A stretch of 64,000 nt of DNA from Candidatus Flemingiibacterium sp. (GCA_045579745.1 JAZNMQ010000070.1:3383-67382); one strand, 5' to 3'. Numbered from the stretch's first letter, positions 6,407-44,712 are shown. Translations and numbers: made by a program. Notes: generated by a model not told the origin, from the sequence alone.

Positions 6407-9400
6407 TTATTTCTTTTCGAAATCGAGTGCGCCGTGTGCGCCGATTTTGCCGAATACGCCGATTCGGTTGTCCTTGTTGCCAACGATATCCGACCATTCC
6501 TTGTTTCCTGCATTCCATGCGGGAGAGGTGTCGCGAGGCATTACGTTGTAAACGCCTGCCTTTGTGATATCGTAGCAATCTCCGAGAACGAAGCCCGACT
6601 TTCTTGCATTGTCCTTCTTTTCCTCAGACCAATCTTCTGGATAAACAGCGTTCTCGTAGTCGTGTACGACCGGCTTGAGCTCAGTAAATTGGGGGTCAAC
6701 CTTGTACATGTTGTGCTTGCCGACGGTTGTTCCTCTGTACTCGGTGCCGACATTGCTGTCGTTGTTGTAGTTGTAGAAAATGTTGTTGTCGTATGCGATA
6801 TCTATATCTCTTGAGCTTGCAGGAGATTCCTTTGTTCTGGAGCGCGAGTATACGATGTTGTTGAACATATTGATGTGGTTTGCGGTGTTCGCAAACATAT
6901 CGGCATATCCGAGTGCAGGGGTTGCGCTGTTGTAAACAAAGGTGTTGTTAATGATATCAGTATAATCAGACCTGAACGCGTGTGCTCCCGAGCCGCCGTT
7001 TTCGTAGGAAAGGTTGTTAGCAACGAGAATCTTGCCTGTGTAGGGAAGTCCCTTGAAGCAGCCGACTGTTGTGTCGATGATGATTCCGTTTCCGTCACTC
7101 AGACGCTTTATATGGAGCCAGGGTATGAAGTGTCTGTTGCCTGCTGTGAGGTTGTTGCGGAAAATGATCTTGTAATCCGTTGTATTGTCATCAATATCGA
7201 TGTTTCCGAGCGTGCCGAAGCCAGAGGTTGCGTAGATGCTCCACCAACCGATATTTAAAGCGGTGCAGTTTTCAATGGTTACATAGTCTGTAAAGCGAGT
7301 TCCGATACCGCCGCCGGGCACCTTGTTTGCAGTACAGTTGCGGACAATGATATGATGAGGTACTATTACAGCCGGGCTGTAAATACCGCCGCTTTCTTTG
7401 TTGGAACCAATTGTGTGAGCGGAGATAGGCTCAATCGGAAATGCGTTTGTCTGTGTAACGCTGACTTCTCTGCCTACGGATTTGTTGATTCCCTTGAGCT
7501 TTTCGTCGTAGAGATTCCATGAGTAGTCATATCCGTAATCATCTGCAAGGCCCTCAAAAGTGAGTCCGTCTATAATTATATAGTACGACTGAAGGATCAT
7601 GATGTTCCATTCGCCATTCGACATCAGAACGGGATGCTCACCCTCAGCCGCCTTGATGGTGATGTAAGCGTCCGGCAAGCCCGAATTTGTTATGATAAAC
7701 GGACCGTTGTGTACATAGGTGTCCTTATTCCAGCCGTACGGTTCGCGGCTTTCATGAATTATCATAGTATCGCCCGGACGAAGCTTGTCATGAGCTGCCA
7801 TGATTGTCTTCATCGCGGTTTCCTCGCTCAGACCGTCGTTATCATCACAGCCTGTATCGCCGTTTACATAGTATGTCTTGAATGTAGGAGTATAGCCGAC
7901 ACGAATTTCGATACGGGTTTTGAACTCTCCGCCTTTGCCGTCCTCGCTCTTGATTATGAAGTTTACGCCGATGGGGTCGAGCGAATTGTTAGAGTTGAGC
8001 GCATCTCTCTTAATAAAGTCGGGCTTGACGAAATCCTTGTTCGGGGTAGTGTATGTCCAATCACCGGTTGCCGGGTCAACTGTAACCTTGCCCTCGCATT
8101 CGGGAAGCTCTTCCTCGAGAGAATATGTAATAACATCTCCGTCGGGGTCCTCAACGAGAATCTTTCCGCTGATGCTTGAGCCCTGAACGATTGAATAGGT
8201 GTAGAATGCGCTGCCGGTCGGTGCGCTGTTGACATGCGCTTTGATATTGGGATTGTTAATGAAGATTCTGCCGAGGTCAGCAACTGCATCGTTGCCCCAA
8301 ATGCCCCACCATTCGGCTTTGCTCCAGAAGTTCATAGAGCTTCTGTGACCTGCGAATACATCAAATCCAATTTGCGAATAATTGTCGCGCTGAACGAAGC
8401 CGTCCTTGAGTGCTGTAAGTCTTTCCCAAGGCATAGCGAACAAAAGGAAGTATCCGTCGTCAAGCTTTATTTGCTTAACGGTTACCCCTGCCTCATCCTG
8501 CGAAATGTAGGAGGTATGATGGTCGGAGGTTGCGCACCAGAATACGGTTTTCTTTGTGGTCGGGAACCAGTTGAATATATAATCAAACTCGTTCTTAGGA
8601 CCCTTTGCGGTATTGTCGCCGTCAAGGATAAACTGAACGAGAGGAGGTGCGTCCTCGCCCTTGTCATCTTTGAGAACAGTATCAAACGATTTTAGCGGAT
8701 CCTCAACCTTAAAGCCAAGGTAGAGGTGCTTGCTGTCGCAGACTGAGCCGAAGCTTACGCTTGCGCCCTCATATTCTTTAAATGCGATAGAGTTGTGAAG
8801 CTCCCATTTTGCAAGGTCGAGCGTTCCGTCGAGCGCGGGAGATTCGTCGGTCGAAACGACTGCGGGAATTCTGTCATAGAGGTAAAGCGAGCCCCATGTC
8901 GAAGGCTTGTTGTAAACCATATATCTGTCCCATGTTAAAACCTGTCTGTCGCTTCTTGTATCGTCGTCATTGTCATTATTTGCTACTTCAATGCCGATAA
9001 GAGAGGTGGGAGAGGGAGTTATACCGAGCGTTTCAAACGGAATGTTGATTTCTGCGGTGAAGCCGCCTTCGTCGCATTTGACAGCATAGAGAAGTCCGTC
9101 AAGGCTTGTTGCATCAGCTGACCTGTCCTTGCCGCCCTGAATGAGTATTTTGCCGTCATACTGAAGATAGATATGGTACGAGTTTACGCCGTTGTAGCCT
9201 TCTGCCTTTGAGTTGGAGCCGTCGATGAAGATTTCGACGGAGTCGTTCTCGTAGATGTTTTCTGCCATGTATTTTGTGACAACATGCGCATCTCTTACAT
9301 CGATTGCAATACTGAGATACTTGTCAGTCCATTTGGTGTCGAATTTGCACTCGTTGTTTGGAGTGGTAGCTTCAAGGCACTGGTTAACCTCATATTTGAG

Positions 9401-9598
9401 CTCGCCCCATTCGCTGAGATCTCCGTCTACAGTGATAGCCGAACCGGCAACAACTGCATCTGCGGTTGAGTACTTGCCGTTCTCGAATTTGAGAGCGACA
9501 CCTTTGGCATTATATTCGGGAAGCGCTTCTGCTTTTTTTGAAAACGCGAGCTCGCCCGTAATCAATGCCTGAGTAGCTGATTTACTGTACGCTGACAT
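6407..9598 (-). CDS. large CBM9-like / cadherin-like / right-handed beta-helix protein (paralog A, no signal peptide or anchor)
   Basis: 1063-aa ORF with AAAGGAG RBS. Two CBM9-like modules (ITVDGDLSEWGE, ENIYENDSVEIFIDG; PALDGTLDLAKWE, VQFILDGDNT). Cadherin-like motif DPDGDVITYS. PbH1-type repeats (HIIVRNCTA, DYVTIENC, IIFRNN, NNLSYENGGSGAH). Collinear with ORF 41230..44712. Confidence 0.8.
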   Translation of the reverse strand: MSAYSKSATQALITGELAFSKKAEALPEYNAKGVALKFENGKYSTADAVVAGSAITVDGDLSEWGELKYEVNQCLEATTPNNECKFDTKWTDKYLSIAIDVRDAHVVTKYMAENIYENDSVEIFIDGSNSKAEGYNGVNSYHIYLQYDGKILIQGGKDRSADATSLDGLLYAVKCDEGGFTAEINIPFETLGITPSPTSLIGIEVANNDNDDDTRSDRQVLTWDRYMVYNKPSTWGSLYLYDRIPAVVSTDESPALDGTLDLAKWELHNSIAFKEYEGASVSFGSVCDSKHLYLGFKVEDPLKSFDTVLKDDKGEDAPPLVQFILDGDNTAKGPKNEFDYIFNWFPTTKKTVFWCATSDHHTSYISQDEAGVTVKQIKLDDGYFLLFAMPWERLTALKDGFVQRDNYSQIGFDVFAGHRSSMNFWSKAEWWGIWGNDAVADLGRIFINNPNIKAHVNSAPTGSAFYTYSIVQGSSISGKILVEDPDGDVITYSLEEELPECEGKVTVDPATGDWTYTTPNKDFVKPDFIKRDALNSNNSLDPIGVNFIIKSEDGKGGEFKTRIEIRVGYTPTFKTYYVNGDTGCDDNDGLSEETAMKTIMAAHDKLRPGDTMIIHESREPYGWNKDTYVHNGPFIITNSGLPDAYITIKAAEGEHPVLMSNGEWNIMILQSYYIIIDGLTFEGLADDYGYDYSWNLYDEKLKGINKSVGREVSVTQTNAFPIEPISAHTIGSNKESGGIYSPAVIVPHHIIVRNCTANKVPGGGIGTRFTDYVTIENCTALNIGWWSIYATSGFGTLGNIDIDDNTTDYKIIFRNNLTAGNRHFIPWLHIKRLSDGNGIIIDTTVGCFKGLPYTGKILVANNLSYENGGSGAHAFRSDYTDIINNTFVYNSATPALGYADMFANTANHINMFNNIVYSRSRTKESPASSRDIDIAYDNNIFYNYNNDSNVGTEYRGTTVGKHNMYKVDPQFTELKPVVHDYENAVYPEDWSEEKKDNARKSGFVLGDCYDITKAGVYNVMPRDTSPAWNAGNKEWSDIVGNKDNRIGVFGKIGAHGALDFEKK

Positions 9599-30142: not shown

Positions 30143-31006
30143 ATGTGCGAATGTAAGATTGCAGAAAAATTAGTGGAGCTCCGCACTTCAAAGGGAGTAA
30201 CGCAGGAGGATGTGGCTCAAAGTCTATCCGTATCAAATAAAACTATTTCAAAATGGGAGAATGGCGCCTCTACGCCGGATCTTCCTATGGTCGTAGAGCT
30301 TGCAAAATATTATGGCGTCACCACCGATACACTTCTCGGACTTTCCGAGGACAAAAAGCAAAGCACAAAAGAAGAAATTCGCTCTTTGTTTGAAGGACTT
30401 GACCGTCGCGAATCTGTGCTAAAAGCATTTGAAACGGTCAAGGCACTTGTGCCTGCGATGTATGGAACGGTTTCTAAATATGATGATGATGTTTATGACA
30501 AGGAAAACGTCTTTCCGTCCGAGATGTCGCATTTTTACCGTTCCAACATTTCGCTTCACGAATTTTTTGAGTTTGTCGCAAGTTATGAAAATGTGAATGT
30601 AGCCGTAATGATGCTGCGAAACAAGGCTAACTTTGCGTGGATGAACGATAACGATAATCAAAAAAGAATCGTTAAGATGTTCAAATTTCTTTCTAACGAA
30701 GATGCGCTTTCCGTGCTGTACTTTGTTCATTCCACTAACTGCTCCGAGAGCTTTACTGCAGATTATATTTCAAAGAATACGGGGATAACCGAAGAACGCG
30801 TTTCGGAAATCCTTAACGAATTCTGTTCTGTCGGTGCTTGTCATTGGGTAACCGCACACCTTGCTGAAGGTGAAGTCAGAGTTTATGAATGTTACGGTGA
30901 CGGTATAGTCTTGTCCTTGATCTCTCTTGCTTATGAGGTAATGTGCGGCAGAAACTCCTATGAATATAACTTCAACGGCAGATGCAAGATGATCGGAGGT
31001 AAATAA
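30143..31006 (+). CDS. XRE-family HTH regulator with about 200-aa C-terminal domain
   Basis: N-terminal HTH_3 (LRTSKGVTQEDVAQSLSVSNKTISKWENG). The C-terminal part includes a second winged-helix-like segment (FTADYISKNTGITEERVSEILNEF). Confidence 0.75.
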   Translation: MCECKIAEKLVELRTSKGVTQEDVAQSLSVSNKTISKWENGASTPDLPMVVELAKYYGVTTDTLLGLSEDKKQSTKEEIRSLFEGLDRRESVLKAFETVKALVPAMYGTVSKYDDDVYDKENVFPSEMSHFYRSNISLHEFFEFVASYENVNVAVMMLRNKANFAWMNDNDNQKRIVKMFKFLSNEDALSVLYFVHSTNCSESFTADYISKNTGITEERVSEILNEFCSVGACHWVTAHLAEGEVRVYECYGDGIVLSLISLAYEVMCGRNSYEYNFNGRCKMIGGK

Positions 31007-31007
31007 G

Positions 31008-31835
31008 ATGAGTTTATCGGCTAATATCAAAAGATTGCGCCTTGAAAAGAACCTAACACAAGAGCAGCTTGCTACAAAGCTTGGAGTATCCGCTCAAGCG
31101 GTTTCCAAATGGGAAACAAGCGAAACATACCCCGACGGGGCGCTTCTCGTTCCTCTTGCAAATGAGCTTGAGGTTTCTCTCGACGAGCTTTTCGGAAACG
31201 ATTCGGTCACGATGGCAGATATTTCGGGCAGAATTGTGAAATTGATTCATAACACCGAGGCAAATGATCGTTTTAATGTTGCGCGTGATATCGGTTGGCA
31301 GATCGAGCGCGGCTTGTTCAACTGCCGTATGGAGATTGAAAAGAAGTACGATCCTAATGAAATCAAGAATCAGAAAAACGCATCCTATATTCTTGATGAT
31401 AACGGATTTACAATCGTATCGAACGGAAAAGAGCCTTTCTTTTCTGTATTTCCGCAGCCGCCAGAGGGATACGGACATTTTTTGGATGATAAGGATGATC
31501 TGCAAAAAATCTTTGCAGCACTATCGCATACGGACACAATTGATGCTTTATGCTATTTGTACCATAAAAACGAAAACTACGTTTTTGAAAGCTCTGTTCT
31601 TGCGAGGGATTGCGGCATTCCGAGTGATAAAATTGAAGCGGTATTGGATGATTTGTTGCTGTTGAGGGCAATGTGGAAGCAGAATCTTGCCATTAACGGT
31701 GAAGAACGTACGCTCTACTATTCAAGACCGAGTCACAAACTACTCGCGCTGTTTATCATGGCAAGGCAGATTGGTTATAAAGGTGCTTATAGTTTGCAAT
31801 CTCACATTAGATACACACCGTTTTTCAAGAAATAA
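31008..31835 (+). CDS. XRE-family HTH regulator, paralogous architecture to the upstream gene
   Basis: N-terminal HTH_3 (LRLEKNLTQEQLATKLGVSAQAVSKWE). The C-terminal segment (LARDCGIPSDKIEAVLDDL) is analogous to the upstream gene. Start is 1 nt after the preceding stop. Confidence 0.75.
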   Translation: MSLSANIKRLRLEKNLTQEQLATKLGVSAQAVSKWETSETYPDGALLVPLANELEVSLDELFGNDSVTMADISGRIVKLIHNTEANDRFNVARDIGWQIERGLFNCRMEIEKKYDPNEIKNQKNASYILDDNGFTIVSNGKEPFFSVFPQPPEGYGHFLDDKDDLQKIFAALSHTDTIDALCYLYHKNENYVFESSVLARDCGIPSDKIEAVLDDLLLLRAMWKQNLAINGEERTLYYSRPSHKLLALFIMARQIGYKGAYSLQSHIRYTPFFKK

Positions 31836-33220: not shown

Positions 33221-34633
33221 TCAGGTAAAATAGCGAAGCAACAGCTTTTGTATGAGATAAAAGTCATCGAATGGCGGATAGCGGAATGGATTCAGCTCCA
33301 AGCGTGACGAGAATAAAACAGAGGATTCGTCGCTGAAGGTGTCAAAGCCTGCTTTGCCGTGATATTTACCGAAACCGCTTTCACCAACTCCGCCGAACGG
33401 GAGATGAGGATTTGATAGCTGAATAACGGTATCATTAATACAGCCGCATCCGAAATCGAGGTTGTCAAGCACGGCTTTGCGCGTTTCCTTGTTCTTGGTG
33501 AAAAGGTAGAGCGCAAGAGGCTTAGGACGCTTTCGAAGTGTATTTAATACGATATTAATATCGTTGAATTCGAACACCGGGAGTATAGGACCGAAAATTT
33601 CCTCGCTCATCAGCTTGCTGTCTTTTTTTATCTTTTCCATGAGTGTGAGTGAGATCTGTCCGGATTTCTCGTTGAAATCGCCGCCCATCAGGATCGTTCC
33701 GTCGCTCAGATAGTTTTTGAGGCGGTTGAAGTGCATCTTATTGATTATCTTGGGATAAAATTTGTTTTCACACGGCGTGAGCGAATAGAAGCGGTCGTGA
33801 TATTCCTTAATATAGCCGAGAAGGTCCTCCTTAACGCTGCTGTCAACAAATAGATAGTCGGGAGCAACGCAGGTCTGCCCTGAGTTTATGAGCTTTCCGC
33901 ATACTATGCGTCTTGCGGCAAGGCGCAGATTTGCTGTTTTATCGACAATACAGGGTGATTTTCCACCGAGCTCCAAAACTACGGGAGTGAGCTGAGTAGC
34001 AGCCGCCTTGCTGATAATTCTCGCAACGGTTAAACCACCGGTATAAAATATCAGTCCAAACTTTTCGTGGCGTATAGCCTTTACAGCCTCGAAGCTGTCC
34101 ATATATGCCGCGATGTATTCTCTATCAAAGTATTTGTCAATCAATTCGCAAAGCAGGCGGCTTGTGTTAACCGAATGCTCCGATAGCTTTAATATTGTGC
34201 AGTTGCCTGCCGAGATGGATGATATGAGCGGCATTATAGTCAGCTGAAACGGGTAATTCCACGGTGAAAAAACCATTGTAAGACCGCGTGGATGGCGGAT
34301 TTTTTTGCTTGATGAGGGAAACAGGTAGTATGGTGTTGGAACGGATTTTGGGGCGTTCCACATTTTTAAATGACGCAAAGCGTGATTGATTTCTTGGTCA
34401 ACCATTCCGATTTCGGTCATATAGCCCTCGCTTTGCGATTTGCCGAGGTCGGCGCGCAGAGCCTCAAGAATGAGCCCCTCATTGTCGCGAACCATTCTTT
34501 TCAGGTTTAACAGCAGTTGTCTGCGAAACGAAATATCGCGAGTTTTGCCGGTAGCAAAGAATTCGCGCTGAGCGGAAATGATCTCCGCGAGTTCAGGGTC
34601 GTATTGGGGCTTCATACTCTGATTTGTATTCAT
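33221..34633 (-). CDS. aldehyde dehydrogenase (ALDH3-like, non-acylating)
   Basis: VVLELGGKSP glutamate motif and catalytic Cys in NSGQTCVAPDY. 470 aa. GGAGGG RBS. Confidence 0.85.
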   Translation of the reverse strand: MNTNQSMKPQYDPELAEIISAQREFFATGKTRDISFRRQLLLNLKRMVRDNEGLILEALRADLGKSQSEGYMTEIGMVDQEINHALRHLKMWNAPKSVPTPYYLFPSSSKKIRHPRGLTMVFSPWNYPFQLTIMPLISSISAGNCTILKLSEHSVNTSRLLCELIDKYFDREYIAAYMDSFEAVKAIRHEKFGLIFYTGGLTVARIISKAAATQLTPVVLELGGKSPCIVDKTANLRLAARRIVCGKLINSGQTCVAPDYLFVDSSVKEDLLGYIKEYHDRFYSLTPCENKFYPKIINKMHFNRLKNYLSDGTILMGGDFNEKSGQISLTLMEKIKKDSKLMSEEIFGPILPVFEFNDINIVLNTLRKRPKPLALYLFTKNKETRKAVLDNLDFGCGCINDTVIQLSNPHLPFGGVGESGFGKYHGKAGFDTFSDESSVLFSSRLELNPFRYPPFDDFYLIQKLLLRYFT

Positions 34634-34809
34634 GTTTTCCCTCCAGATGGTTTTTGCGTATAGTATTATTATATACCAACAATTGTTAATAAAGCAAGTG
34701 ATTCGCCGAAAAAACTTGTATTTGGCACCTAAAAAAGACGCTCAAGGTCCATTTTGCCACGCAAAACGATAAATGCTAATATTACAACTATAAATCACAA
34801 ACTATTCTC

Positions 34810-34838
34810 TTGACAATTGTATAATAAAAGTGTATATT
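34810..34838 (+). promoter_or_regulatory. sigma-A type promoter for the activase/GRE operon
   Basis: TTGACA (34810-34815), 17-nt spacer, TATATT (34833-34838). Confidence 0.55.
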
Positions 34839-34868
34839 ATAATTGAAGTAATAAAGGAATCGGTGAAG

Positions 34869-35774
34869 ATGAAAAATACCGGAATCGTTTTTGATATACA
34901 GAGGTTTTCCATCCATGACGGGCCGGGCATTCGTACAACCGTCTTTTTGAAAGGATGTCCACTCAGTTGTGCATGGTGTCATAATCCCGAATCGTGGGAT
35001 GTTAAGCCTCAGCTTATGTTTAACGGAGAAAAATGCGTCGGCTGTATGGCATGCGTTGAGGCTTGCCCGAATAATGCGCATAAACTTGAGGACGGGAAGC
35101 ATGTTGTAGATTACTCAATTTGCAGCGGATGCGGCGCTTGCGTATCAAGATGCGTTTACAGTGCGCTCAAATTGTCAGGCAGGGAACAGAGCGTCGAGGA
35201 AGTTTTAGCAGAGGTTTGCGCTGACAGAAAGTTCTATGAAAATTCGGGCGGCGGAATGACTGTGTCGGGCGGAGAACCAATGCTGCAATTTGAATTTTTG
35301 CAGACACTCCTCTCAGAAGCTAAGCGTCAGGGAATAAGCACATGTGTTGAAACGAGCGGCTTTGCTCCGCGCGAAAAGTATGAAGCAATACTTAGCGATG
35401 TTGATTTATTTTTAATCGACATAAAGCATATAAACAGAGATGAGCACAAAAAATACACGGGCGTTTACAATGATCTGATACTTAAAAATATTGAATTTTT
35501 ACACGACAACGGTGCAAAAATTTTAATCAGATTGCCGCTTATACCCGGTATAAACGATACAGATGAGCACATAAACGGAGTTTCGGCTCTGCTTAATAGA
35601 CTTCCGGGTCTTCTTGGCGCGGAAATATTGCCGTACCATGATATGGGCAAGGGCAAATGGAATCAGCTCGGCAAGCAGTATGAGCTTATGGAGCTCAAAA
35701 ATTCTGACAAAGAGCAAAAGGCGAAGCTTTTACAGCGGTTTATTGACGCCGGATGCAGAAACGTTAAAATATAA
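34869..35774 (+). CDS. glycyl-radical enzyme activating enzyme (radical SAM)
   Basis: IQRFSIHDGPGIRT followed by CX3CX2C (GCPLSCAWCHN). Two ferredoxin-type clusters (CVGCMACVEACP, CSGCGACVSRC). Start taken at ATG 34869. Confidence 0.9.
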   Translation: MKNTGIVFDIQRFSIHDGPGIRTTVFLKGCPLSCAWCHNPESWDVKPQLMFNGEKCVGCMACVEACPNNAHKLEDGKHVVDYSICSGCGACVSRCVYSALKLSGREQSVEEVLAEVCADRKFYENSGGGMTVSGGEPMLQFEFLQTLLSEAKRQGISTCVETSGFAPREKYEAILSDVDLFLIDIKHINRDEHKKYTGVYNDLILKNIEFLHDNGAKILIRLPLIPGINDTDEHINGVSALLNRLPGLLGAEILPYHDMGKGKWNQLGKQYELMELKNSDKEQKAKLLQRFIDAGCRNVKI

Positions 35775-35788
35775 TAACAGGAGGAACG

Positions 35789-38023
35789 ATGATGAAAAAA
35801 CTCAACGATTTTTCGGTTGAAAGAAGATTCACCGAAGTGTACAGAGAAAATCAGAACGCACATATTGCCATCAGAGAGGCAAAATGTATTGATACCATGT
35901 ACCCCGATATCTTCGGTGAGATCAAACCGGGAGATAAATTTGCAGGTCGCATTCAGATGAGCATTCTCGGCTTTAGTCCGGAACCGGGTGGACTCGGATA
36001 CTACTGCAACTCTGCAGCTATCAGAAATATCGTAAAAAATGGCGATTATTCCGATGAGTTCAGGGCAGAAATGAACGAGATCGCCGATTTCTGGGAAAAG
36101 GAAAATACACAGTATAAAACAAGAGCCGCATACACGAATGATATCAGCGAAGCGCTTCCGTCTGATAACTGGGGTGGCGAACCGCTTCCTGCGGCACCGC
36201 TTTACCGCATGGCAGGTATTTACATTGATTACGAGAAGCTTTTAGCTAACGGTATTCCCGGACTCAAGGCGCTTGTAGCTGAAAAGAAAAAATTCGCTGA
36301 GGAAAATGGCGGCGATGTTGAGCTGTTTGTCGGAATGGACATGGCTCTCGATGTTTTGGTAAAATCTTGTCTTGCTTACAGCAAGGAAGCCCTCGAGCTC
36401 TCTAAAACCGTTGAGGATGAGGCTGAGGTTAAGAACCTCGAGATCGTTGCTAAAACGCTTGAAACCATCGCGTACAACAAGCCGGAAACTACTCGTGAGG
36501 CGATTCAGCTTTATTGGCTGTATACCTTGATTTGCAATACCATCAACTACGGACGCTTTGATATTGCGATCGGTGATTTCCTCGCAAAGGATCTTGAAAC
36601 CGGTGTTCTCACAATGGATGAGGCGCAGGAGCTCATTACGGGTCTTTGGCGACTTATTATCGATCGTCACACAACGTGGAACGGTCGCGTAGTTATTGGC
36701 GGAAAGGGCAGAAGAAACGAAAAGAATGCTGATGTTGTAGCTATGCTTGCTATGGAAGCATCAAGAATTTGCCACGACATCGAGCCTCAGCTCACCCTTC
36801 GTTTCTACGAGGGCATGAATCCGATGCTCATGGAAAAGGCTATTCAGGTTATCGGCGAGGGCTGCACCTATCCGATGCTTTACAACGATGATGTCAATAT
36901 TCCGGCAGTCAGCAACGCTTTCAGAATCAGCATGGAAGAGGCTGAGGATTATGTTCCGTTTGGCTGCGGCGAGTATGTTATCAACCACAAGAGCTTCGGT
37001 ACACCTAACGGAATTATCAACCTTTTGAAATGCCTGGAGCTCACGCTTCACAACGGCTACAACATGATGAGCGGTGAAAAATCCGGAATCGATGTAGGAA
37101 ACGTTGAGGACTTCAAGACATTTGACGAGCTCTTTAACGCATATAAGAAACAGGTTGAGTACTTTGTAGACGCTCTTGCTAAGCAGGAGGCTCTCACATA
37201 CAAAATTACGGGTGAGGCAGCTCCATTCCTCTTTATCAGCATGCTGTACGATGACTGCATGGAGAGAGGAAAAGGCATGTTCTCCGGCGGTATTAAGTAT
37301 CTTGGCGGTACTATTGAAACCTACGGCAACATCAATACCTCTGACAGCTTGACCGCAATTAAGGAAGTCGTTTATGATAAGAAGCTCCTCACACTCAAGC
37401 AACTCGTAACAATCCTCGATGCAAACTTTGAGGGCTACGAGCAGGAGCATCAATGGCTTGTTAACGCGCCGAAATACGGTAACGATAATGCGGTAGCTGA
37501 TGAAATTGCAGAGGCTGTTCACGAGCACGTTTGCAACTTCGTAAGAGATGAGATCGAAAAGGTTGATTTGCACTCCTATTTGGTAGTTATCATTAACAAC
37601 AGCACGAACACCTCAATGGGTATCCAGACTGCGGCTTCCGCGGATGGACGCAAAAAGGGCGTTTACATGGCGAATGCAAACAATCCTTGGGGCGGAAATG
37701 ATAAGACGGGTCTTACCGCGATGCTCAACTCTCTCGTAAAGCTTCGTCCTGATATTCACGCAGGAGCGGTACAGAATATGAAATTCTCGCCCGAGATCTT
37801 CGCAAACGACGGAGCTATTATCAAGAGCGTTTTGAAGACCTATTTCGATAACGGCGGAACACAGGCTATGATTTCCGTCGTGAATAAGGACGACCTTGAG
37901 CAGGCTATGATTCATCCTGAAAAATATGGCAATCTCTATGTGCGTGTAGGTGGCTTCAGCGCACGCTTCATTGAGCTTGGTAAGGAAATTCAAAAGGAAA
38001 TTCTCAGCCGTACGCTTTATTAA
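35789..38023 (+). CDS. glycyl-radical enzyme, PFL-like fold, Cys-x-Glu type, substrate unknown
   Basis: 744-aa ORF. C-terminal glycyl-radical fingerprint YVRVGGFSARF (Gly722 = nt 37952-37954). Thiyl loop FGCGEYV (Cys393/Glu395 = nt 36965-36973). AGGAGG RBS. Confidence 0.9.
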   Translation: MMKKLNDFSVERRFTEVYRENQNAHIAIREAKCIDTMYPDIFGEIKPGDKFAGRIQMSILGFSPEPGGLGYYCNSAAIRNIVKNGDYSDEFRAEMNEIADFWEKENTQYKTRAAYTNDISEALPSDNWGGEPLPAAPLYRMAGIYIDYEKLLANGIPGLKALVAEKKKFAEENGGDVELFVGMDMALDVLVKSCLAYSKEALELSKTVEDEAEVKNLEIVAKTLETIAYNKPETTREAIQLYWLYTLICNTINYGRFDIAIGDFLAKDLETGVLTMDEAQELITGLWRLIIDRHTTWNGRVVIGGKGRRNEKNADVVAMLAMEASRICHDIEPQLTLRFYEGMNPMLMEKAIQVIGEGCTYPMLYNDDVNIPAVSNAFRISMEEAEDYVPFGCGEYVINHKSFGTPNGIINLLKCLELTLHNGYNMMSGEKSGIDVGNVEDFKTFDELFNAYKKQVEYFVDALAKQEALTYKITGEAAPFLFISMLYDDCMERGKGMFSGGIKYLGGTIETYGNINTSDSLTAIKEVVYDKKLLTLKQLVTILDANFEGYEQEHQWLVNAPKYGNDNAVADEIAEAVHEHVCNFVRDEIEKVDLHSYLVVIINNSTNTSMGIQTAASADGRKKGVYMANANNPWGGNDKTGLTAMLNSLVKLRPDIHAGAVQNMKFSPEIFANDGAIIKSVLKTYFDNGGTQAMISVVNKDDLEQAMIHPEKYGNLYVRVGGFSARFIELGKEIQKEILSRTLY

Positions 38024-38030
38024 TTAAAAA

Positions 38031-38065
38031 AATGGTGTAACCTATATGGGTTACACCATTTTTTT
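38031..38065. terminator. strong rho-independent terminator after the GRE
   Basis: aatggtgtaacc (38031-38042) pairs with ggttacaccatt (38049-38060), with an A-run upstream and ttttt downstream. Confidence 0.8.
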
Positions 38066-38141
38066 GAAAAGTATTGAATTTTGTAGGTTATTGAGGTATA
38101 ATGTTTTTGCTGACATAATTTTATGAAGGTAGACTGTCTTT

Positions 38142-38711
38142 GTGGATGGTAGTTGCATGGATGACTTGAAAATTATTGAGCTTTTTTTGAACCGCGACGA
38201 AAGCGCGATAACCGAAACAGCTAACAAATACGGGAAGCTATGCTTCAGCGTGGCATTCGCAATACTCGAAAATGATGAAGACTGCGAAGAATGCGTTAAC
38301 GATATGTATTTGACCTTGTGGAAAATGATTCCCCAAACAATCCCCGATAATTTCTCGGCGTTTATTTGCAGGGTGACACGAAATTTAGCGTATAAACGCC
38401 TCGAATTCAATCTTGCATTAAAGAGAAACCCGTGCTCGGAGGTTTCGCTTTCGGAGCTTGAGGAATATCTGATTGACGACAGCTTTAACCCCAATATTTT
38501 GGATGAAAAACTCGACGAGCTGATACATAATTTTCTGAGCGGCGAGAAGGCGGATGTTAAAAACGTTTTCGTTCGTAAATATTGGTATCTCGAATCGGTA
38601 GGCGATATTGCTGCGAGATATTCCTTCAGCGAGAGCAAGGTCAAATCAATGCTGTACCACACGCGCTGCAAGCTCAGAGAATATTTAAAGCAAGAGGGCA
38701 TGCACTTTTAA
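38142..38711 (+). CDS. sigma-70 family (ECF-like) RNA polymerase sigma factor
   Basis: Region-2-like block (DCEECVNDMYLTLWKMIPQ...FICRVTRNLAYKR) and a region-4 HTH (DIAARYSFSESKVKSMLYHTRCKLREYL). Start is ambiguous between GTG 38142 and ATG 38157. Confidence 0.75.
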   Translation: MDGSCMDDLKIIELFLNRDESAITETANKYGKLCFSVAFAILENDEDCEECVNDMYLTLWKMIPQTIPDNFSAFICRVTRNLAYKRLEFNLALKRNPCSEVSLSELEEYLIDDSFNPNILDEKLDELIHNFLSGEKADVKNVFVRKYWYLESVGDIAARYSFSESKVKSMLYHTRCKLREYLKQEGMHF

Positions 38712-38764
38712 GCTGTAATATAGGAAGCTTCATTAAAATATATACGCAGATTTCCCGATTTTTC

Positions 38765-38793
38765 TTGACAAATTTATTTGCGTGATATATAAT
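38765..38793 (+). promoter_or_regulatory. consensus sigma-A promoter for the thrS leader
   Basis: TTGACA (38765-38770), 17-nt spacer, TATAAT (38788-38793). Confidence 0.7.
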
Positions 38794-38799
38794 ATAGTA

Positions 38800-39075
38800 A
38801 AGGCTGAGCAGATATGCCGATTTGCACGATTTCAGAGAGAGCTCCATTTGCTGTGAGGGGCTTATTGCGGTAAATACGGTCAACTAACCGCTGCTCGGGT
38901 GCGGGAGCTATCTTGCACATTGCCGCGCGCAGGAAATGGCGCGACGTTCTCCGACGTTACACGGACTCGGGTGCTATTTGCTCGAGATAAAGTTAAAAAA
39001 TCGGGTGGAACCGTGGGATATTTCTCACCCCGAAGGGATAATTTTATTATTATGCCCTCGGGGTGTTTTTGTTTT
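38800..39075 (+). promoter_or_regulatory. T-box leader (tRNA-Thr responsive) with terminator/antiterminator
   Basis: AGAGAG stem-I start (about 38838). Thr codons ACU/ACC lie in the candidate specifier region (38883-38889). T-box core aatcgggtggaaccgtggg (38998-39016). Terminator stem: caccccgaaggg (39026-39037) pairs with ccctcggggtg (39055-39065), followed by tttttgtttt. It sits directly upstream of thrS. Confidence 0.85.
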
Positions 39076-39104
39076 CCCCTGGGCTGAAAGGAAAGGTATT
39101 CATT

Positions 39105-41039
39105 ATGTTCAAAATTACTTTTGAAGGCAACGCGCCGCTCGAGTTTGATGCTCCGATTACTGCTTATGAAGCGGCAAAGGGAGCGGGACTTACCGACCGT
39201 TCCTCTCTCGCTGTAAAGGTTGACGGCGAGGTTCATGCTCTCTCCTATTTGATTGATCACGACTGTGATGCAAAAATCTTAACCTTTGAGGATGCTGACG
39301 GAAAGCATGTTTTCTGGCATACCGCTTCTCACATTCTCGCGCAGGCGGTTAAGCGTCTTTATCCTTCTGCAAAGCTCACAATAGGTCCCGCTATCGAAAC
39401 GGGCTTCTATTACGATATCGACAGCGAAACCTCATTTACACCCGAGGTTTTGGCAAATATCGAAGCAGAAATGCAGAAGATCGTTAAGGAAAATCTTATT
39501 ATCGAACGCTTCGCACTTCCTCGCGATGAGGCTATAAAGCTTATGAGCGAGAAGGACGAGCCTTATAAGGTTCAGCTTATCGAGGAGCTCCCCGAGGGCG
39601 AGGAGATCTCGTTCTACAAGCAGGGAGAATTTACTGACCTCTGTGCAGGACCTCACCTTTTCTCAACGGGTTCCGTCAAGGCTTTAAAGCTCATTCAATG
39701 CACAGGCGCATATTGGAAGGGCGATCAGAACAACAAACAGCTTCAGCGCATCTACGGTGTCGCTTTCCCCTCAAAGGATATGCTAAAGGAGCATCTTACT
39801 GCAGTTGAAGAGGCAAAGAAGCGCGACCACAATAAGCTCGGACGCGAGCTTGAGCTCTTTACAACCGTTGACTCCATTGGCCAAGGCTTGCCGATTATGC
39901 TTCCCAAGGGAGCACGCGTTATTCAGCTTCTTCAGCGTTGGGTCGAGGACGAGGAGCAAAAGCGCGGCTATTTGCTTACAAAAACTCCGCTCATGGCAAA
40001 ATCCGACCTTTATAAAATTTCCGGACACTGGGATCACTATAAGGATGGCATGTTTGTACTCGGAGATGAAGAAAAGGACAAGGAAGTCTTTGCGCTTCGT
40101 CCGATGACATGCCCGTTCCAGTACCAGGTATTCCTCAACCGTCAGCGCTCGTATCGCGACCTCCCGATGCGTCTTGGAGAAACATCAACTCTCTTCCGTA
40201 ACGAGGATAGCGGCGAAATGCACGGACTTATCCGCGTTCGTCAGTTTACAATTTCCGAGGGACATCTGATTCTCCGTCCCGAACAGCTTGAGGATGAATT
40301 CCGCGGATGTGTTGAGCTTGCAAAGCATATGCTTGACACTATCGGACTTGGCGAGGATGTATCCTATCGCTTCTCGCAATGGGATCCCAATAACCGCGAA
40401 AAATACGAGGGTACAAATGAGCAATGGGAAGAAGCTCAGGGCGCGATGAAGAAGATTCTCGATAACATCGGCATCAATTACACTATCGGTATCGGTGAGG
40501 CAGCATTCTACGGTCCTAAGCTTGACATTCAGATTAAGAATGTTCACGGCAAGGAGGATACTCTTATCACAATTCAGATCGACCAGCTTCTTGCTGAAAA
40601 GTTTGGAATGGAGTATATCGATGTTGACGGTCAGAAACGCCGTCCGTACATCATTCACCGTACATCCGTCGGATGCTATGAACGTACGCTTGCTCTGCTT
40701 ATTGAAAAATATGCAGGTGCGTTCCCGATGTGGCTTGCACCGACTCAGATAGCAATTCTGCCTATCGGATTCGATCAGCACGAATATGCTGAGGCACTCA
40801 ACGAAAAGCTTAGTGCTTGCGGCATCCGTACATTCCTTGATGAGCGTAACGAGAAGATTGGCTACAAGATTCGCTCCGCTCAGCTCGAGAAGATTCCGTA
40901 TATGCTCGTAATCGGAGATAAAGAGAAGAACGATGGCACAGTTGCGGTTCGTTCGCGTAAAGACGGCGACCTTGGTGTAATGAGCATTGACGAATTCCTC
41001 GGAAAGGCTCTTGTTGAAATCAACACAAAGGCAAGATAA
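39105..41039 (+). CDS. thrS: threonine--tRNA ligase
   Basis: TGS N-terminal domain, editing-domain HTASHILA, class II motifs (FRNEDSGEMHGLIRVRQF), and a C-terminal anticodon-binding domain. ATG 39105 lies downstream of the T-box terminator; listed ORF start 39063 lies inside it. Confidence 0.95.
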   Translation: MFKITFEGNAPLEFDAPITAYEAAKGAGLTDRSSLAVKVDGEVHALSYLIDHDCDAKILTFEDADGKHVFWHTASHILAQAVKRLYPSAKLTIGPAIETGFYYDIDSETSFTPEVLANIEAEMQKIVKENLIIERFALPRDEAIKLMSEKDEPYKVQLIEELPEGEEISFYKQGEFTDLCAGPHLFSTGSVKALKLIQCTGAYWKGDQNNKQLQRIYGVAFPSKDMLKEHLTAVEEAKKRDHNKLGRELELFTTVDSIGQGLPIMLPKGARVIQLLQRWVEDEEQKRGYLLTKTPLMAKSDLYKISGHWDHYKDGMFVLGDEEKDKEVFALRPMTCPFQYQVFLNRQRSYRDLPMRLGETSTLFRNEDSGEMHGLIRVRQFTISEGHLILRPEQLEDEFRGCVELAKHMLDTIGLGEDVSYRFSQWDPNNREKYEGTNEQWEEAQGAMKKILDNIGINYTIGIGEAAFYGPKLDIQIKNVHGKEDTLITIQIDQLLAEKFGMEYIDVDGQKRRPYIIHRTSVGCYERTLALLIEKYAGAFPMWLAPTQIAILPIGFDQHEYAEALNEKLSACGIRTFLDERNEKIGYKIRSAQLEKIPYMLVIGDKEKNDGTVAVRSRKDGDLGVMSIDEFLGKALVEINTKAR

Positions 41040-41229: not shown

Positions 41230-44200
41230 TTATTTCTTCTTAGACTTTGTTACCGCGAAAATCACAACTGCTCCGACAACTATCACTGCAACAATAACGA
41301 TGATAATTGCTGTCGGGAATGAGCCTTGTGCATCATCTGTTTGACCGTCGTCCGGGTTTCCTGCGCCCTCGTCGGTTTCGGTATCAGAAATTGCATCGTC
41401 ATTCTTATCAGTATCAGTGGGTTTGCTTGTGTCCTTCGGCTCATCAGTTTCAACCGGATCCGCGGGAAGCTCGTAGTCCTCTATTGCAAGACCAACGTGA
41501 GCATAGATACCGATAACGTTATCCGTATTTCCAACGATTTCAGACCATGCTGCATTGCCTGCGCCGAATGCGGGAGAGGTTGCTTTGAGTGCAACATCAT
41601 ATGTTCCGTTTGTGGTGACATCATAGTTATCACCCGGTACATAACCTGCCTTCTTCGCATTCTCTATCGCTTCCTTAGACCATGTGGACGGATAGGTTGC
41701 CTTGTTTACATCATGAACTGCGGGAGCGAGGTTGGTGAACTGCGGGTCAACCGGATAGAGGTTGTTGATTCCTACAACTACACCCTTGATTGATTTGCCG
41801 ATGTTGCTGTTGGAGCTGTAGTTATAGAAAATGTTGTTGTCATACTCTACACCGGTGTAGCCAGCGCCAACGGGATTTTCAACGCAGCCAGTGCGCGAAT
41901 ATACGATGTTGTTGTACATTCTGAAGTTGTTGGACTGGTTGTTGAAAAGTTCGCCCCAATTAAGGTGAGGAGTTGCGTTGTTGTAAAGAACGGTGTTGTT
42001 GATTACATCAACATTATCACTTCTGAAAGAGTGAATGCCCGAACCGCCGTTTTCGTAAACGAGGTTGTTTTCTATGAGTATTTTTCCTCTGTAAGGAAGA
42101 TTGTCGAAAGTGTTATTGTTACTGTCGATGAGGATTCCGTTACCGTCACTGAGAGCTTTGTGTCCTACCCACGGGATAAAGTGACGGTTACCGATTGAAA
42201 TGTTGTTGCGGAAGATGATCTTATAGTCCTCGGTGTTGTTGTCAACATCGATGTTACCGAGCGAACCGAGTCCGGAGGATGCGTACATGCCCCACCAACC
42301 ATTATTAACCGAAACACAGTTCTCTATTGTTACATAGTCAGAGAATCGAGTGCCGATGCCGCCTGAGCAAAGCAGGGTTGCGGTACAGTTGCGAACGATT
42401 ATGTGGTTAGGTACGATTACGCCGGGGTTGAGAACGCCATCTGAGAATTTATCAGGAGTGTGACCTGAGGTAGGCTCGATGCACATACCGTTAGTATTGG
42501 TAACACTGACCTTTCTTCCCCATTCGCTATCTGTCTTGAATTCCTTGCCGTAGTAAACATCCCAAGCCTGCTCGTAGGTAACCTCATCAGCAAGACCTTC
42601 AATGGTTAAGCCGTCGAAAATTACATAGCTTGCCTGAACGATAATGGTGTTCCATTCGCCGTTTGACTTGAGCACAGGCTTTTCACCGGGAGCTGCTTTG
42701 TAGGTGATATAAGCTTCCGGCAAACCCGAACGGGTAATTACAAACGGACCGTCGTTTGAATATACAGTCGACCAGCCGTACGGGATTTCGCTCTCGAAGA
42801 TGATAACTGTATCGCCGGGGTTTGTCTTGAGATGTGCCGCTTGAATTGTCTTTAAAGGCTTATCCTTATAAAGACCGCTGTTGGAGTCACTTCCGATATC
42901 TCCGTCAACATAATATGTTTTGTATGTCGGAGTTTTAAGAACCTTGATTTCAACGCGGGTTTTGAGTATTCCGCCAAGACCATCGGAGGTTTCAACTACA
43001 AAGTTTACACCTACGGGGTCGGTCGATGCGCCGTAGTAAAGCGGGTCGTCTACAATGTATGCAGGCTTTACGAATTTATCACTCGGAGGAGTGTAGGTCC
43101 ATTCGCCTGTCGCTGAATCGATCTTGACGCTTCCCTCATCGGCGGGGATATCCTTGATTATAGTGTATGTAAGCGGATCGCTGTCCTTATCGGTAGCTTC
43201 GATTTTGCCCTTAAGGGTAGTGCCCTGAGCGATAGCGTATGCGTATAGCTGAGTACCCTGAGGAACACTATTGATATGAGCGGATACGTTTGAATTGTTT
43301 ACAAAAAGTCTGCCGAGGTTGTTGCATCCCTGGTCGCCCCACATGGGAACCCAGCCGCCGCTGAAGTAGCCGGCGCCTGAATCATCACGGCCTGACATGA
43401 TATCAATTCCCACGAGTGAGAAGTTGTCACGCTCAGCCAAATTAGTGCCTTCGGCAAGAGGTGAAATGGAGTTCCACGGAATCGTGCAAAGGAGGAAATA
43501 ACCGCCATTTACTTCAAATTGCTGTGCTTTTGCTGTCTTATTGGGAGCAGCCGAAACATAGTGGCACTGCGTGAAGCTTTCAGTAGGTCGCCACTGAATA
43601 ATAACGTCATGCTCATCTCTTGCGCCGCTTGCGGTATTGTCACCGTCAATCATTATCTGAACGACGGGCGGATGTTCCGTAATCTCGCCATCTGTTTCCT
43701 TCGTTTGTATAGTATTGAAGGAACCGTCAGGGTCTTCTACAAAGAAGCCAAGGTAGAGATTTTGGTTGTCACACATAGCGCCAAAGCTGTTTGTGGCACC
43801 AATGTATTTTTGAAAATCCATCTTGCTGCTGAGGTCCCACTCGGAGAGAACAGGCTTGTCAAGCGTAGGAGTTCCGGGGTTCGCTACAAGCGGAGCCTTG
43901 GAAGCTCCAAGATAGAGAATACCCCATGTGTTAGGCAGGTTGTAAGCCATATCCTTGTTCCAAAGCCAGGTATGGCGAACGGAGCTTGTATGAGAGTCGT
44001 TATCGTTGTTTGAAACTTCAAGACCGATAACCGTATTTTGTGCAGCGGTAATTCCAAGTGATTCGAAGGGAATGTTTACCTCTACATTGAAGCCATCGGC
44101 ATCTTCCTTTACCGAATAAAAGACTCCTTCAAGCTCAGTCTTTGTCCACTTGTCCTGTTTGCCGCCATGAATTTCAATTGTTCCGTCGTACTGAATGAAA

Positions 44201-44712
44201 AAGTGGTAGTCGTTTACTCCGTCGTAATTGTCACCCTTGCTGTGGTCAGCGTCGATGAAGATCTCGACTGAGTCGTTTTCGTAAATGTTTTCGCTTGTAA
44301 AGTCCTTGACAATATCGCTGTCAACAACATCAACTGCGATGCTCAGGTATTTGGCGTTCCATTTTGAGTCGAATGTACAGATGTTGTTGTAGATGGTAGC
44401 CTCTGTCTGCTGATTTACAGAATAGCGAAGCCCGCCCCATTCGCCAAGATCTCCGTCGACTGTTACAGGAGAACCTGACAAACTTGTGTCTGCGGTCGTG
44501 TACTTGCCATTGGCAAACGAAAGCATCGGTGCTGTATGCTCTTTGGCATTTCCTGCTTTAGTTGAAACAGCGAATTGGCGAGAGGGTAACAGCTCTGTTG
44601 TTTCCTCAGCCTGCACATTCTGCGCCATGGAAAGCACGCCAAGGCACAGAGCTGAGCTGAGAAAGCTTGCCAAAAGTTTGTTCATAGCAATCTTCTTGCA
44701 TGAATAAGACAT
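41230..44712 (-). CDS. large secreted, C-terminally membrane-anchored CBM9-like / cadherin-like / beta-helix protein (paralog B)
   Basis: 1160-aa ORF with GGAGG RBS and signal peptide MNKLLASFLSSALCLGVLSMAQNVQA. CBM9-like blocks (VTVDGDLGEWGG, ENIYENDSVEIFIDA). DKDSDPLTYT motif. PbH1 repeats. Acidic D/T/P linker, then a TM helix (IIIVIVAVIVVGAVVIFAV) plus KSKKK. No LPXTG. Confidence 0.85.
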   Translation of the reverse strand: MSYSCKKIAMNKLLASFLSSALCLGVLSMAQNVQAEETTELLPSRQFAVSTKAGNAKEHTAPMLSFANGKYTTADTSLSGSPVTVDGDLGEWGGLRYSVNQQTEATIYNNICTFDSKWNAKYLSIAVDVVDSDIVKDFTSENIYENDSVEIFIDADHSKGDNYDGVNDYHFFIQYDGTIEIHGGKQDKWTKTELEGVFYSVKEDADGFNVEVNIPFESLGITAAQNTVIGLEVSNNDNDSHTSSVRHTWLWNKDMAYNLPNTWGILYLGASKAPLVANPGTPTLDKPVLSEWDLSSKMDFQKYIGATNSFGAMCDNQNLYLGFFVEDPDGSFNTIQTKETDGEITEHPPVVQIMIDGDNTASGARDEHDVIIQWRPTESFTQCHYVSAAPNKTAKAQQFEVNGGYFLLCTIPWNSISPLAEGTNLAERDNFSLVGIDIMSGRDDSGAGYFSGGWVPMWGDQGCNNLGRLFVNNSNVSAHINSVPQGTQLYAYAIAQGTTLKGKIEATDKDSDPLTYTIIKDIPADEGSVKIDSATGEWTYTPPSDKFVKPAYIVDDPLYYGASTDPVGVNFVVETSDGLGGILKTRVEIKVLKTPTYKTYYVDGDIGSDSNSGLYKDKPLKTIQAAHLKTNPGDTVIIFESEIPYGWSTVYSNDGPFVITRSGLPEAYITYKAAPGEKPVLKSNGEWNTIIVQASYVIFDGLTIEGLADEVTYEQAWDVYYGKEFKTDSEWGRKVSVTNTNGMCIEPTSGHTPDKFSDGVLNPGVIVPNHIIVRNCTATLLCSGGIGTRFSDYVTIENCVSVNNGWWGMYASSGLGSLGNIDVDNNTEDYKIIFRNNISIGNRHFIPWVGHKALSDGNGILIDSNNNTFDNLPYRGKILIENNLVYENGGSGIHSFRSDNVDVINNTVLYNNATPHLNWGELFNNQSNNFRMYNNIVYSRTGCVENPVGAGYTGVEYDNNIFYNYSSNSNIGKSIKGVVVGINNLYPVDPQFTNLAPAVHDVNKATYPSTWSKEAIENAKKAGYVPGDNYDVTTNGTYDVALKATSPAFGAGNAAWSEIVGNTDNVIGIYAHVGLAIEDYELPADPVETDEPKDTSKPTDTDKNDDAISDTETDEGAGNPDDGQTDDAQGSFPTAIIIVIVAVIVVGAVVIFAVTKSKKK

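Follow-up and report, generated by a model that had tools for sequence, protein, structure and literature searches.

A self-contained two-gene operon in a 64,000-nt stretch of Candidatus Flemingiibacterium sp. DNA (GCA_045579745.1, JAZNMQ010000070.1:3383-67382; referred to as the window) encodes a glycyl-radical enzyme (GRE) and its radical-SAM activase, which on balance appear to constitute a radical C-O-cleaving eliminase or isomerase system for a carbohydrate-derived substrate. Judged from their sequences, the two genes almost certainly specify an intact functional GRE and its activating enzyme, and the clade to which this GRE belongs is very probably distinct from all characterised GREs. 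For the parts of the proposed function, derivation of the substrate from carbohydrate is probable, while C-O elimination or isomerisation as the reaction stands at about even chances.

A glycyl-radical enzyme outside the characterised families

The 744-aa GRE displays a PFL-like domain (PF02901, E=4.6e-122) and a Gly_radical domain (PF01228, E=2e-20), and the sequence features that mark the superfamily are present, namely the barrel with a C-terminal glycine-radical domain, the loop glycine in RVxG[FY], the catalytic Cys and a cognate activase. Cys393 and Glu395 of the thiyl-radical loop align with Cys433/Glu435 of glycerol dehydratase (GDH) and with Cys434/Glu436 of HypD, and both the Cys-x-Glu loop and the radical-glycine loop are invariant among 23 aligned clade members. 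The C-terminus of the protein reads ...LYVRVGGFSARFIELGKEIQKEILSRTLY. The activase possesses the CX3CX2C cluster (CPLSCAWC) at residue 30 (nt 34956-34979), two ferredoxin-type CX2CX2CX3C motifs at residues 56 and 85, and the Pfam domains Radical_SAM, Fer4_12 and Fer4. It passed the GRE-activating protein model TIGR02494 (365 bits, cut-off 174), and its best equivalog was the HypD activase, which failed (363 bits, cut-off 425).

Family membership of the GRE was assessed using NCBIfam hidden Markov models (HMMs) with curated cut-offs. The protein scored 320.6 bits against a cut-off of 678.2 for the pyruvate formate-lyase (PFL) 2/glycerol-dehydratase subfamily (TIGR01774), 298 against 1100 for HypD (NF043068), ~263-266 against 1000 for the sulfopropanediol dehydratases NF048009 (HpfG-type) and NF048011 (HpsG-named), 253.7 against 1050 for the choline trimethylamine-lyase CutC (TIGR04394), 227 against 1109 for the PflD type (NF007437), 205 against 1150 for HPAD, 197 against 1100 for IAD and 90.7 against 994.2 for PFL (TIGR01255), so that every equivalog model was missed by at least 3-fold. 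Membership in PFL, CutC, HypD, glycerol dehydratase, HpsG/HpfG, HPAD and IAD was therefore rejected on the basis of these cut-offs and of the residue mapping described below.

The best solved-structure matches by sequence were glycerol dehydratase, HypD and propanediol dehydratase (E~1e-71). When the AlphaFold2 (AF2) model of the GRE (pLDDT 85.5, pTM 0.88) was compared by Foldseek with more than 50 solved GRE chains, TM-scores (TMq) of 0.83-0.87 at 21-26% identity were obtained with no clear nearest class; according to this model, the 744-aa protein forms the whole GRE barrel and lies no nearer to one characterised GRE class than to another. Lengths of the solved Cys-x-Glu GREs start at 765 aa (E. 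coli PflD) and reach 897 aa, and the window GRE is shorter than all of them, as the original prediction for this locus had claimed, though with a lower bound of ~790 aa that was slightly too high. That prediction had also placed the activase and GRE ORFs with their motifs, called the GRE a non-PFL enzyme carrying Cys-x-Glu and assigned it to no characterised GRE. The ORFs and motifs were all recovered by ORF reading, Pfam and NCBIfam, the FGCGEYV loop and the TIGR01255 score support the second claim, and the third stands with the failure of TIGR01774 and the equivalog models and with the equidistance from solved GREs.

Since the pair has its own predicted promoter and its own terminator, activase and GRE can be regarded as a compact two-gene unit (Table 1). 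The predicted promoter matches 11 of 12 consensus positions and is the top match within 34500-38300, in an AT-rich region where comparable matches arise at just ~2-fold the shuffled expectation. An AAGGA ribosome-binding site lies ~10 nt 5' of the activase ATG at 34869; in the ORF listing, this ORF could instead begin at an upstream in-frame GTG (34830). Directly after the GRE stop codon sits a hairpin with a folding energy (dG) of -25.5 kcal/mol (z=-7.2), a stability equalled by none of 200 shuffles; it was absent from the output of a simple terminator scan, and its flanking A-tract and T-tract suggest that it could act in both directions. The promoter and the strong terminator had both been predicted, as had a unit lacking shell, transporter and regulator genes, which holds for this window. 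Microcompartment shell genes were found neither in the window nor among the recurrent neighbours of relatives, and an Rfam scan of the whole window gave 0 matches, revealing no riboswitch or leader pointing to an effector.

Table 1. Positions of the activase-GRE unit, its signals and the divergent dehydrogenase gene, counted from the first nucleotide of the window
Feature	Position	Strand	Basis or remark
Sigma-70-type promoter-like site, TTGACA-17 nt-TATATT	34810..34838	+	Upstream of activase; predicted, consensus match only
GRE-activating radical-SAM enzyme, 301 aa	34869..35774	+	Pfam, TIGR02494, Cys motifs
Glycyl-radical enzyme, 744 aa	35789..38023	+	Pfam PFL-like and Gly_radical; uncharacterised clade of ~745 aa
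Cys393-Gly394-Glu395 of the thiyl-radical loop FGCGEYV	36965..36973	+	Cys-x-Glu, not Cys-Cys
Radical glycine Gly722 in YVRVGGFSARF	37952..37954	+	Aligns with GDH Gly763 and HypD Gly765
Intrinsic terminator hairpin, 20 bp	38024..38067	+	Core stem 38033-38058; flanking A-tract and T-tract
ALDH3/MdlD-like aldehyde dehydrogenase (ALDH)	33221..34633	-	Pfam Aldedh E=2e-67; divergent from the pair

A widespread clade with an altered active site

A protein search returned more than 100 homologues of 725-770 aa with 53-77% identity to the window GRE (900-1700 bits for clade members) from Bacillota, Limnochordia, Atribacteria, Ignavibacteria and Bacteroidota; those listed carry only the name 'pyruvate formate lyase family protein' or no name. 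For at least 120 of the homologues listed the identity is 55-77%, and a level of 55% or more is kept across phyla. Alignment of 23 diverse clade members gave a mean column identity of 68% and ~150 invariant positions. We defined the clade by the two signature peptides P[FY]GCGEY[IV][IL] and E[TS]YGN[TIV]NT[AS], the motifs PLYRMxG, IINNSxNT and RVGGFSARF, two loop deletions and at least 50% identity between members. The window GRE conforms to this definition, with PFGCGEYVI, ETYGNINTS and the further motifs and deletions in place. Of 226 highly conserved positions it departs from the clade at 5, each time by a conservative change, as is typical of members; retention of the other 221 indicates an intact orthologue, not a decaying copy.

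When species-representative genomes were searched with the two peptides, at least 437 species genomes from at least 10 phyla were found to carry them. The best-scoring 80 loci from these genomes were fetched, and 79 non-redundant loci were used for neighbour counts; going by the record titles, the fetched loci extend the clade to Acidobacteriota, Verrucomicrobiota, Planctomycetota (Poriferisphaera), Kryptoniota, Calditrichaceae, Cloacimonadota, Spirochaetaceae and Anaerolineaceae. Cultured carriers include Eisenbergiella porci, Melioribacter roseus, Rosettibacter primus, Ruminiclostridium cellobioparum, Clostridium lacusfryxellense and Anaerotaenia torta. A full-text literature search found no paper on the clade, an absence that is no proof of its being unpublished, and a 2026 review of GREs describes no such enzyme, noting that entire clades are unannotated and without validation (PMC13450708).

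Several peculiarities were observed within the clade. Two activase architectures exist: about one third are short (242-264 aa) and without CX2CX2CX3C, whereas the remainder, at ~300 aa, contain this motif once or twice. The type varies even between close GRE relatives (66-68% identity); examples to set against the window activase are L001 10242-11018 and L090 7154-7936. An uncultured Clostridia metagenome-assembled genome (MAG; locus L053) has two clade GRE copies within 22 kb, each beside an FGGY sugar kinase gene, which suggests paralogous specialisation. A clade GRE at 50% identity, from which no intact ORF was recovered, occurs in a MAG labelled 'Mycobacterium leprae isolate MAG73' (L051, JBLNEM010000508.1), indicating a mislabelled or contaminated bin.

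Active-site residues were mapped by HMMER alignments to GDH and HypD and by a MAFFT alignment adding E. coli YbiW and PflD. Apart from Cys393, Glu395 and Gly722, no residue of the window GRE matches a known catalytic residue in the alignments to GDH and HypD. In place of the GxGH histidine that follows strand 1 (GDH His164, HypD His160, also in YbiW and PflD) and protonates the leaving hydroxyl in GRE dehydratases, the clade has an invariant PLYRMxG; the His column aligns with Gly143 or a gap, or with Tyr139 in the HypD pairwise register. The ESN-GHS loop that holds GDH His281/Ser282 has lost 7 aa and the loop bearing GDH Tyr339 or HypD Phe340 has lost 14 aa, and the short length of the GRE is mostly explained by these two deletions. 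Of the GDH residues, Ser282, Tyr339 and Asp447 are deleted in the window GRE and Tyr640 is replaced by Ile; of those in HypD, Phe340 is deleted and the others are changed (Asp278 to Asn, Ser334 to His, Tyr450 to Ile and Thr645 to Asn). The strand of GDH Tyr640 and HypD Thr645 reads IINNSxNT in the clade, and the glycyl loop reads RVGGFSARF as against RVAGYSA. Polar residues that are invariant in the clade only include R300, Y396, H400, S402, N603, N604 and T608. The candidate columns for phosphate-binding residues shared by YbiW and PflD, which lie mostly in the N-terminal part, outside the GDH/HypD sequence compared, are not conserved in the clade. We infer a predicted pocket that is more open and polar and suited to a larger hydroxylated or anionic substrate.

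Carbohydrate neighbourhoods and the proposed reaction

To place the pair in context, ORFs were called in the fetched loci and clustered, recurrent clusters were annotated, and neighbours were counted within 10 kb. The activase adjoins the GRE in 60 of the 79 loci, and in most relatives the strict operon consists of the GRE-activase pair alone; as this is the commonest arrangement, the 'orphan' layout of the window is the norm of the clade. The commonest neighbour was a divergent AraC regulator with a cupin ligand domain (39/79), followed by a PhyH-type dioxygenase (23/79), a LacI regulator (22/79), a sugar-binding ABC protein (20/79), a GFO/IDH/MocA oxidoreductase (19/79), an IU-nucleoside-hydrolase-like protein (17/79), an aldo-keto reductase (AKR, 16/79) and an SMP-30 lactonase-like protein (15/79). 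Glycoside hydrolases recurred as GH92 alpha-mannosidase (14/79), GH10-like (12/79), GH106-like (10/79) and GH38 alpha-mannosidase (7/79) proteins; sugar kinases as PfkB (12/79), FGGY (9/79, one passing the XylB model) and ROK (9/79) members; and a zinc-dependent alcohol dehydrogenase (13/79), an Amidohydro_2 protein of lactonase-type fold (8 loci) and a D-lyxose/mannose-isomerase-like cupin (5/79) were also found. A sugar kinase gene directly adjoins the pair in 11 loci. The nearest non-syntenic relatives (66-68% identity) lie between GH3, GH36, GH63-like, GH88, PL8, GH1 and GH5 genes, and likewise near genes for PfkB/ketohexokinase (Khk), AKR, GFO and 2-hydroxyacid-dehydrogenase proteins. The recurrence of two unrelated alpha-mannosidase families, two unrelated lactonase-type folds and three kinase families suggests a carbohydrate pathway and leaves its substrate unspecified. 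Thus the earlier idea that no functional context was to be had did not survive, since the relatives reside in carbohydrate-utilisation neighbourhoods.

The PhyH neighbour, an O2-dependent 2-oxoglutarate dioxygenase, stands repeatedly beside the O2-sensitive GRE. It directly adjoins the pair in six loci (L021, L037, L045, L047, L067 and L073) that fall, by record title, into five groups (Kryptoniota, Neobacillus, Rhodothermaceae, Neomarinimicrobiota and Verrucomicrobiota). Among solved structures it is most closely related to SnoK, EvdO2 and SnoN, sugar-modifying oxygenases that take hydrogen from sugar carbons. PhyH and GRE may act on a common substrate, one with O2 and the other without. A parallel with E. 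coli YbiU, encoded beside ybiW, was considered and dropped, as pairwise BLASTP gave no significant similarity (E=0.32).

Some other neighbours deserve mention in their own right. Two unrelated families of ribosyl-bond hydrolases occur repeatedly near the GRE (for example L090 12753-14111 and L091 17300-18229; also L004, L015, L020, L044 and others), the IU-nucleoside-hydrolase-like proteins in 17 loci and the ADP-ribosylglycohydrolase-like ones in Lachnospiraceae-type loci. A 726-aa neighbour in seven loci (L049, L057, L059, L061, L062, L065 and L083) gave no Pfam family and no PDB relative, a recurrent 394-aa neighbour gave no PDB relative, and a ~528-550-aa neighbour (L001, L011 and L012) matched no Pfam family and showed weak GH10-like similarity. 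These recurrent Pfam-less proteins could represent as yet undescribed glycoside hydrolases with a link to this pathway.

All GRE eliminases retain the CXE motif, and catalysis in Cys-x-Glu eliminases and isomerases begins with hydrogen abstraction by the thiyl radical at a carbinol carbon; once the Glu has deprotonated the hydroxyl, the group on the adjacent carbon is ejected from the ketyl radical, and hydrogen is finally given back (PMC13450708). By analogy, the activase would put the radical on Gly722, which would generate a thiyl radical on Cys393; this in turn would abstract hydrogen at a carbinol position of a polyhydroxylated substrate of carbohydrate origin. Deprotonation of the hydroxyl by Glu395 would give a ketyl radical, which would eliminate a hydroxyl, ring-ether or alkoxy leaving group from the adjacent carbon, and the resulting alpha-keto radical would regain hydrogen from Cys393. 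As the clade lacks the usual general-acid His, departure of the leaving group would have to be assisted by some other residue that is invariant in the clade, the candidates being R140, Y139, Y396, H400 and R300. Such a reaction would yield a deoxy-keto sugar or a ring-opened isomer, and in relatives the neighbouring sugar kinases and oxidoreductases could process it further.

Several points weigh against this assignment. The Cys-x-Glu motif is no proof of elimination, since GRE decarboxylases also carry it. No carbohydrate gene adjoins the pair in the window, where the flanks are homoserine dehydrogenase (HomDH), extracytoplasmic-function (ECF) sigma factor, threonyl-tRNA synthetase (ThrRS) and fatty-acid synthesis genes, and the sugar link is one of neighbourhood, drawn from raw counts without background control in genomes rich in glycoside hydrolases. 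Sequence alignment underlies the active-site assignments, and at residues 600-660, which include the IINNSxNT strand, the AF2 model has low confidence (pLDDT 47-68). Finally, the general-acid His of the dehydratases and of YbiW/PflD is missing, so the mechanism can be no simple copy of theirs.

Although the GRE belongs to a known superfamily, in which the existence of uncharacterised members is itself unsurprising, it is a distinct active-site variant. A bolder reading, which we put forward tentatively, is that the clade represents a new GRE reaction, an O2-independent radical C-O cleavage (at a hydroxyl, ring ether or O-alkyl group) on a free carbohydrate-derived substrate without the usual general-acid His, and the anaerobic counterpart of the PhyH dioxygenase. 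Equally tentative candidates for the substrate in that case are anhydro-, deoxy- and O-methyl-sugars, cyclitols and sugar acids.

A narrower form of the favoured assignment, which we consider unlikely, is a YbiW/PflD-type ring-opening isomerase converting a free or phosphorylated 1,5-anhydro-alditol to a 1-deoxy-ketose. In its favour, YbiW and PflD, which likewise carry Cys-x-Glu, break a C-O bond in the ring of a sugar; GFO/IDH/MocA and AKR proteins, the families of known 1,5-anhydrofructose reductases, recur in clade neighbourhoods together with sugar kinases including Khk-type ketohexokinase and GH13 amylase-like genes, and the PhyH oxygenase could be an aerobic ring-opening alternative. 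However, the window GRE is 26% identical to E. coli YbiW and no closer to it than to other GREs, the YbiW/PflD His (GDAH/GQGH) and ESN-xxS loop are missing, neither E. coli-type phosphotransferase system (PTS) nor fructose-6-phosphate-aldolase genes were found among the recurrent neighbours, and the PhyH neighbour fails to resemble YbiU significantly, as noted above.

The original prediction had instead taken the divergent ALDH as a functional hint, envisaging an eliminase of a small molecule (a diol, an amino alcohol or a sulfonate) whose aldehyde product is oxidised by this enzyme. The operon and the ALDH are transcribed away from each other out of a common intergenic region of 235 bp, and among NCBIfam models the ALDH comes closest to NF045701, the MdlD-type benzaldehyde dehydrogenase, with 379 bits against a cut-off of 550. 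By tblastn against 92 related loci, a single match to the ALDH (within 8-10 kb of the GRE) was obtained, in L089, the closest relative, which shares with the window the order UxuA-HomDH-ALDH divergent from activase-GRE-sigma; identities between the two are 97% for UxuA, 90% for HomDH, 87% for ALDH, 80% for the activase, 77% for the GRE and 68% for the sigma factor. The ALDH in L089 thus reflects shared ancestry and not independent co-occurrence, and elsewhere among the relatives it is AraC that is found in the divergent position. We therefore rejected ALDH coupling as a conserved feature, and the ALDH next to the pair is most likely an unrelated bystander. The prediction had made its own standing depend on the ALDH linkage not being lost in relatives along with the appearance of a neighbourhood of known function; the linkage is essentially lost (1/92), and the unassigned chemistry survives. 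An ALDH-coupled eliminase, with its Cys-x-Glu motif, its divergent ALDH conserved in L089 and its best sequence and structure matches among glycerol, propanediol and hydroxyproline dehydratases, is thus distinctly unlikely: those matches are only marginally above other GREs, the GDH residues His164, Ser282, Tyr339, Asp447 and Tyr640 and the HypD residues His160, Asp278, Ser334, Phe340, Tyr450 and Thr645 are absent or deleted, every equivalog HMM was missed, and no microcompartment genes were seen. With regard to the synteny itself, two tandem paralogous XRE-family helix-turn-helix proteins (287 and 275 aa, window 30143-31835) lie between UxuA and HomDH in the window and not in L089, and L089 has an ICMT-like methyltransferase gene between HomDH and ALDH.

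Other known GRE chemistry is very unlikely, be it decarboxylation of the arylacetate type, addition to fumarate as by an X-succinate synthase, or the action of a keto-acid formate-lyase. Decarboxylases share Cys-x-Glu and the fold is common to all these classes, but the Cys-Cys pair is lacking, TIGR01255 and the HPAD and IAD models scored far below their cut-offs, BSS, MASS and HPAD were the most distant structural matches, and neither small-subunit genes beside the GRE (in the window or relatives) nor an aromatic or hydrocarbon context was found. It is just as improbable that the pair is a stranded remnant, cut off from its pathway genes and with no present physiological role in this organism, despite the lack of adjoining regulator, transporter or pathway genes in the window and a GRE identity to L089 below that of the flanking UxuA and HomDH, since both ORFs are intact and have a promoter, ribosome-binding site and terminator, the five departures from conserved positions are no worse than in other members, a stand-alone pair is the commonest clade arrangement and the arrangement is conserved in L089.

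GRE chemistry is important for health and the environment through trimethylamine, hydrogen sulfide, p-cresol and hydrocarbon activation. Should the bolder reading given above be correct, the clade would be a new functional class of GREs in polysaccharide degraders of soils, sediments, digesters and guts. Its breadth, strong conservation, sugar context, unusual pocket and cultured hosts set it above the average uncharacterised GRE clade, and what was an 'orphan' gene pair can now be put to the test, with candidate substrates defined and hosts available that grow in culture.

The wider window is mainly housekeeping, with the HomDH gene, the two XRE regulators, the ECF sigma factor, ThrRS and fatty-acid synthesis genes, and UxuA and a TRAP transporter are encoded ~5 kb upstream of the pair. 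Two large secreted proteins of 1063 and 1160 aa (6407-9598 and 41230-44712, both on the minus strand) each have a CBM9 domain, and Pfam left most of the length of both without assignment; in the 1160-aa protein, a linker rich in Thr, Asp and Pro and a hydrophobic anchor make up the C-terminal end. A ~350-nt untranslated stretch (38712-39104) lies upstream of ThrRS (39063-41039), where a T-box leader might be expected; no Rfam match at the gathering threshold was obtained for a T-box anywhere in the 64-kb window.

Comparison with known glycyl-radical systems

The window GRE shares with PflB and TdcE the superfamily fold and the glycyl-radical domain. It differs from them in having no Cys-Cys pair, Cys393 being flanked by Gly392 and Gly394, and they are its weakest GRE match in the PDB (E=2e-15, C-terminal part only). 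With CutC and the sulfonate lyases IslA, IseG and HpsG, for which a ketyl-radical eliminase mechanism applies, it has in common the Cys-x-Glu motif and a similar fold, whereas the scores for TIGR04394 (254 against 1050 bits) and the sulfopropanediol models (~265 against 1000) and the lack of an amine or sulfonate context set it apart.

Glycerol dehydratase of C. butyricum (1R8W) and 1,2-propanediol dehydratase (5I2G) are the best matches (E=1e-71, TMq 0.85-0.87), resembling the window system in the barrel fold, in the positions of the Cys-x-Glu and glycyl loops and in the adjoining radical-SAM activase. Unlike these enzymes, to which it is 25-26% identical, the window GRE is ~43 aa shorter owing to the active-site loop deletions, has no microcompartment or diol-pathway context, and has GDH His164, His281/Ser282, Tyr339, Asp447 and Tyr640 replaced or deleted. 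HypD (6VXC) and the N-methyl-hydroxyproline dehydratases HpyG and HpzG (8ID1 and 8IOF) are comparable matches (E=1.6e-71, TMq 0.84-0.87) that also carry Cys-x-Glu, and the window activase scores highest against the HypD-activase model, though below its cut-off. The differences from HypD lie in the NF043068 score (298 against 1100 bits) and in His160, Asp278, Ser334, Phe340, Tyr450 and Thr645, which are not conserved; no proline-pathway genes were found near the pair.

YbiW and PflD, which open the rings of 1,5-anhydroglucitol-6-P and 1,5-anhydromannitol-6-P, are the only characterised GREs acting on sugars (PMC13450708). The window GRE differs from them in its low identity to YbiW (26%), in TM-scores no better than those for other GREs and in a clade without the GxxH histidine and the ESN loop, and the AraC/LacI regulators, ABC transporters and cytoplasmic kinases of clade loci contrast with the PTS and aldolase context of YbiW/PflD. 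It resembles them in the Cys-x-Glu motif, in the carbohydrate context of clade loci and in size, PflD being the next-shortest at 765 aa. If its substrate is indeed derived from sugar, the clade would be only a second kind of sugar-directed GRE after YbiW/PflD and could reveal an overlooked anaerobic route in glycan breakdown.

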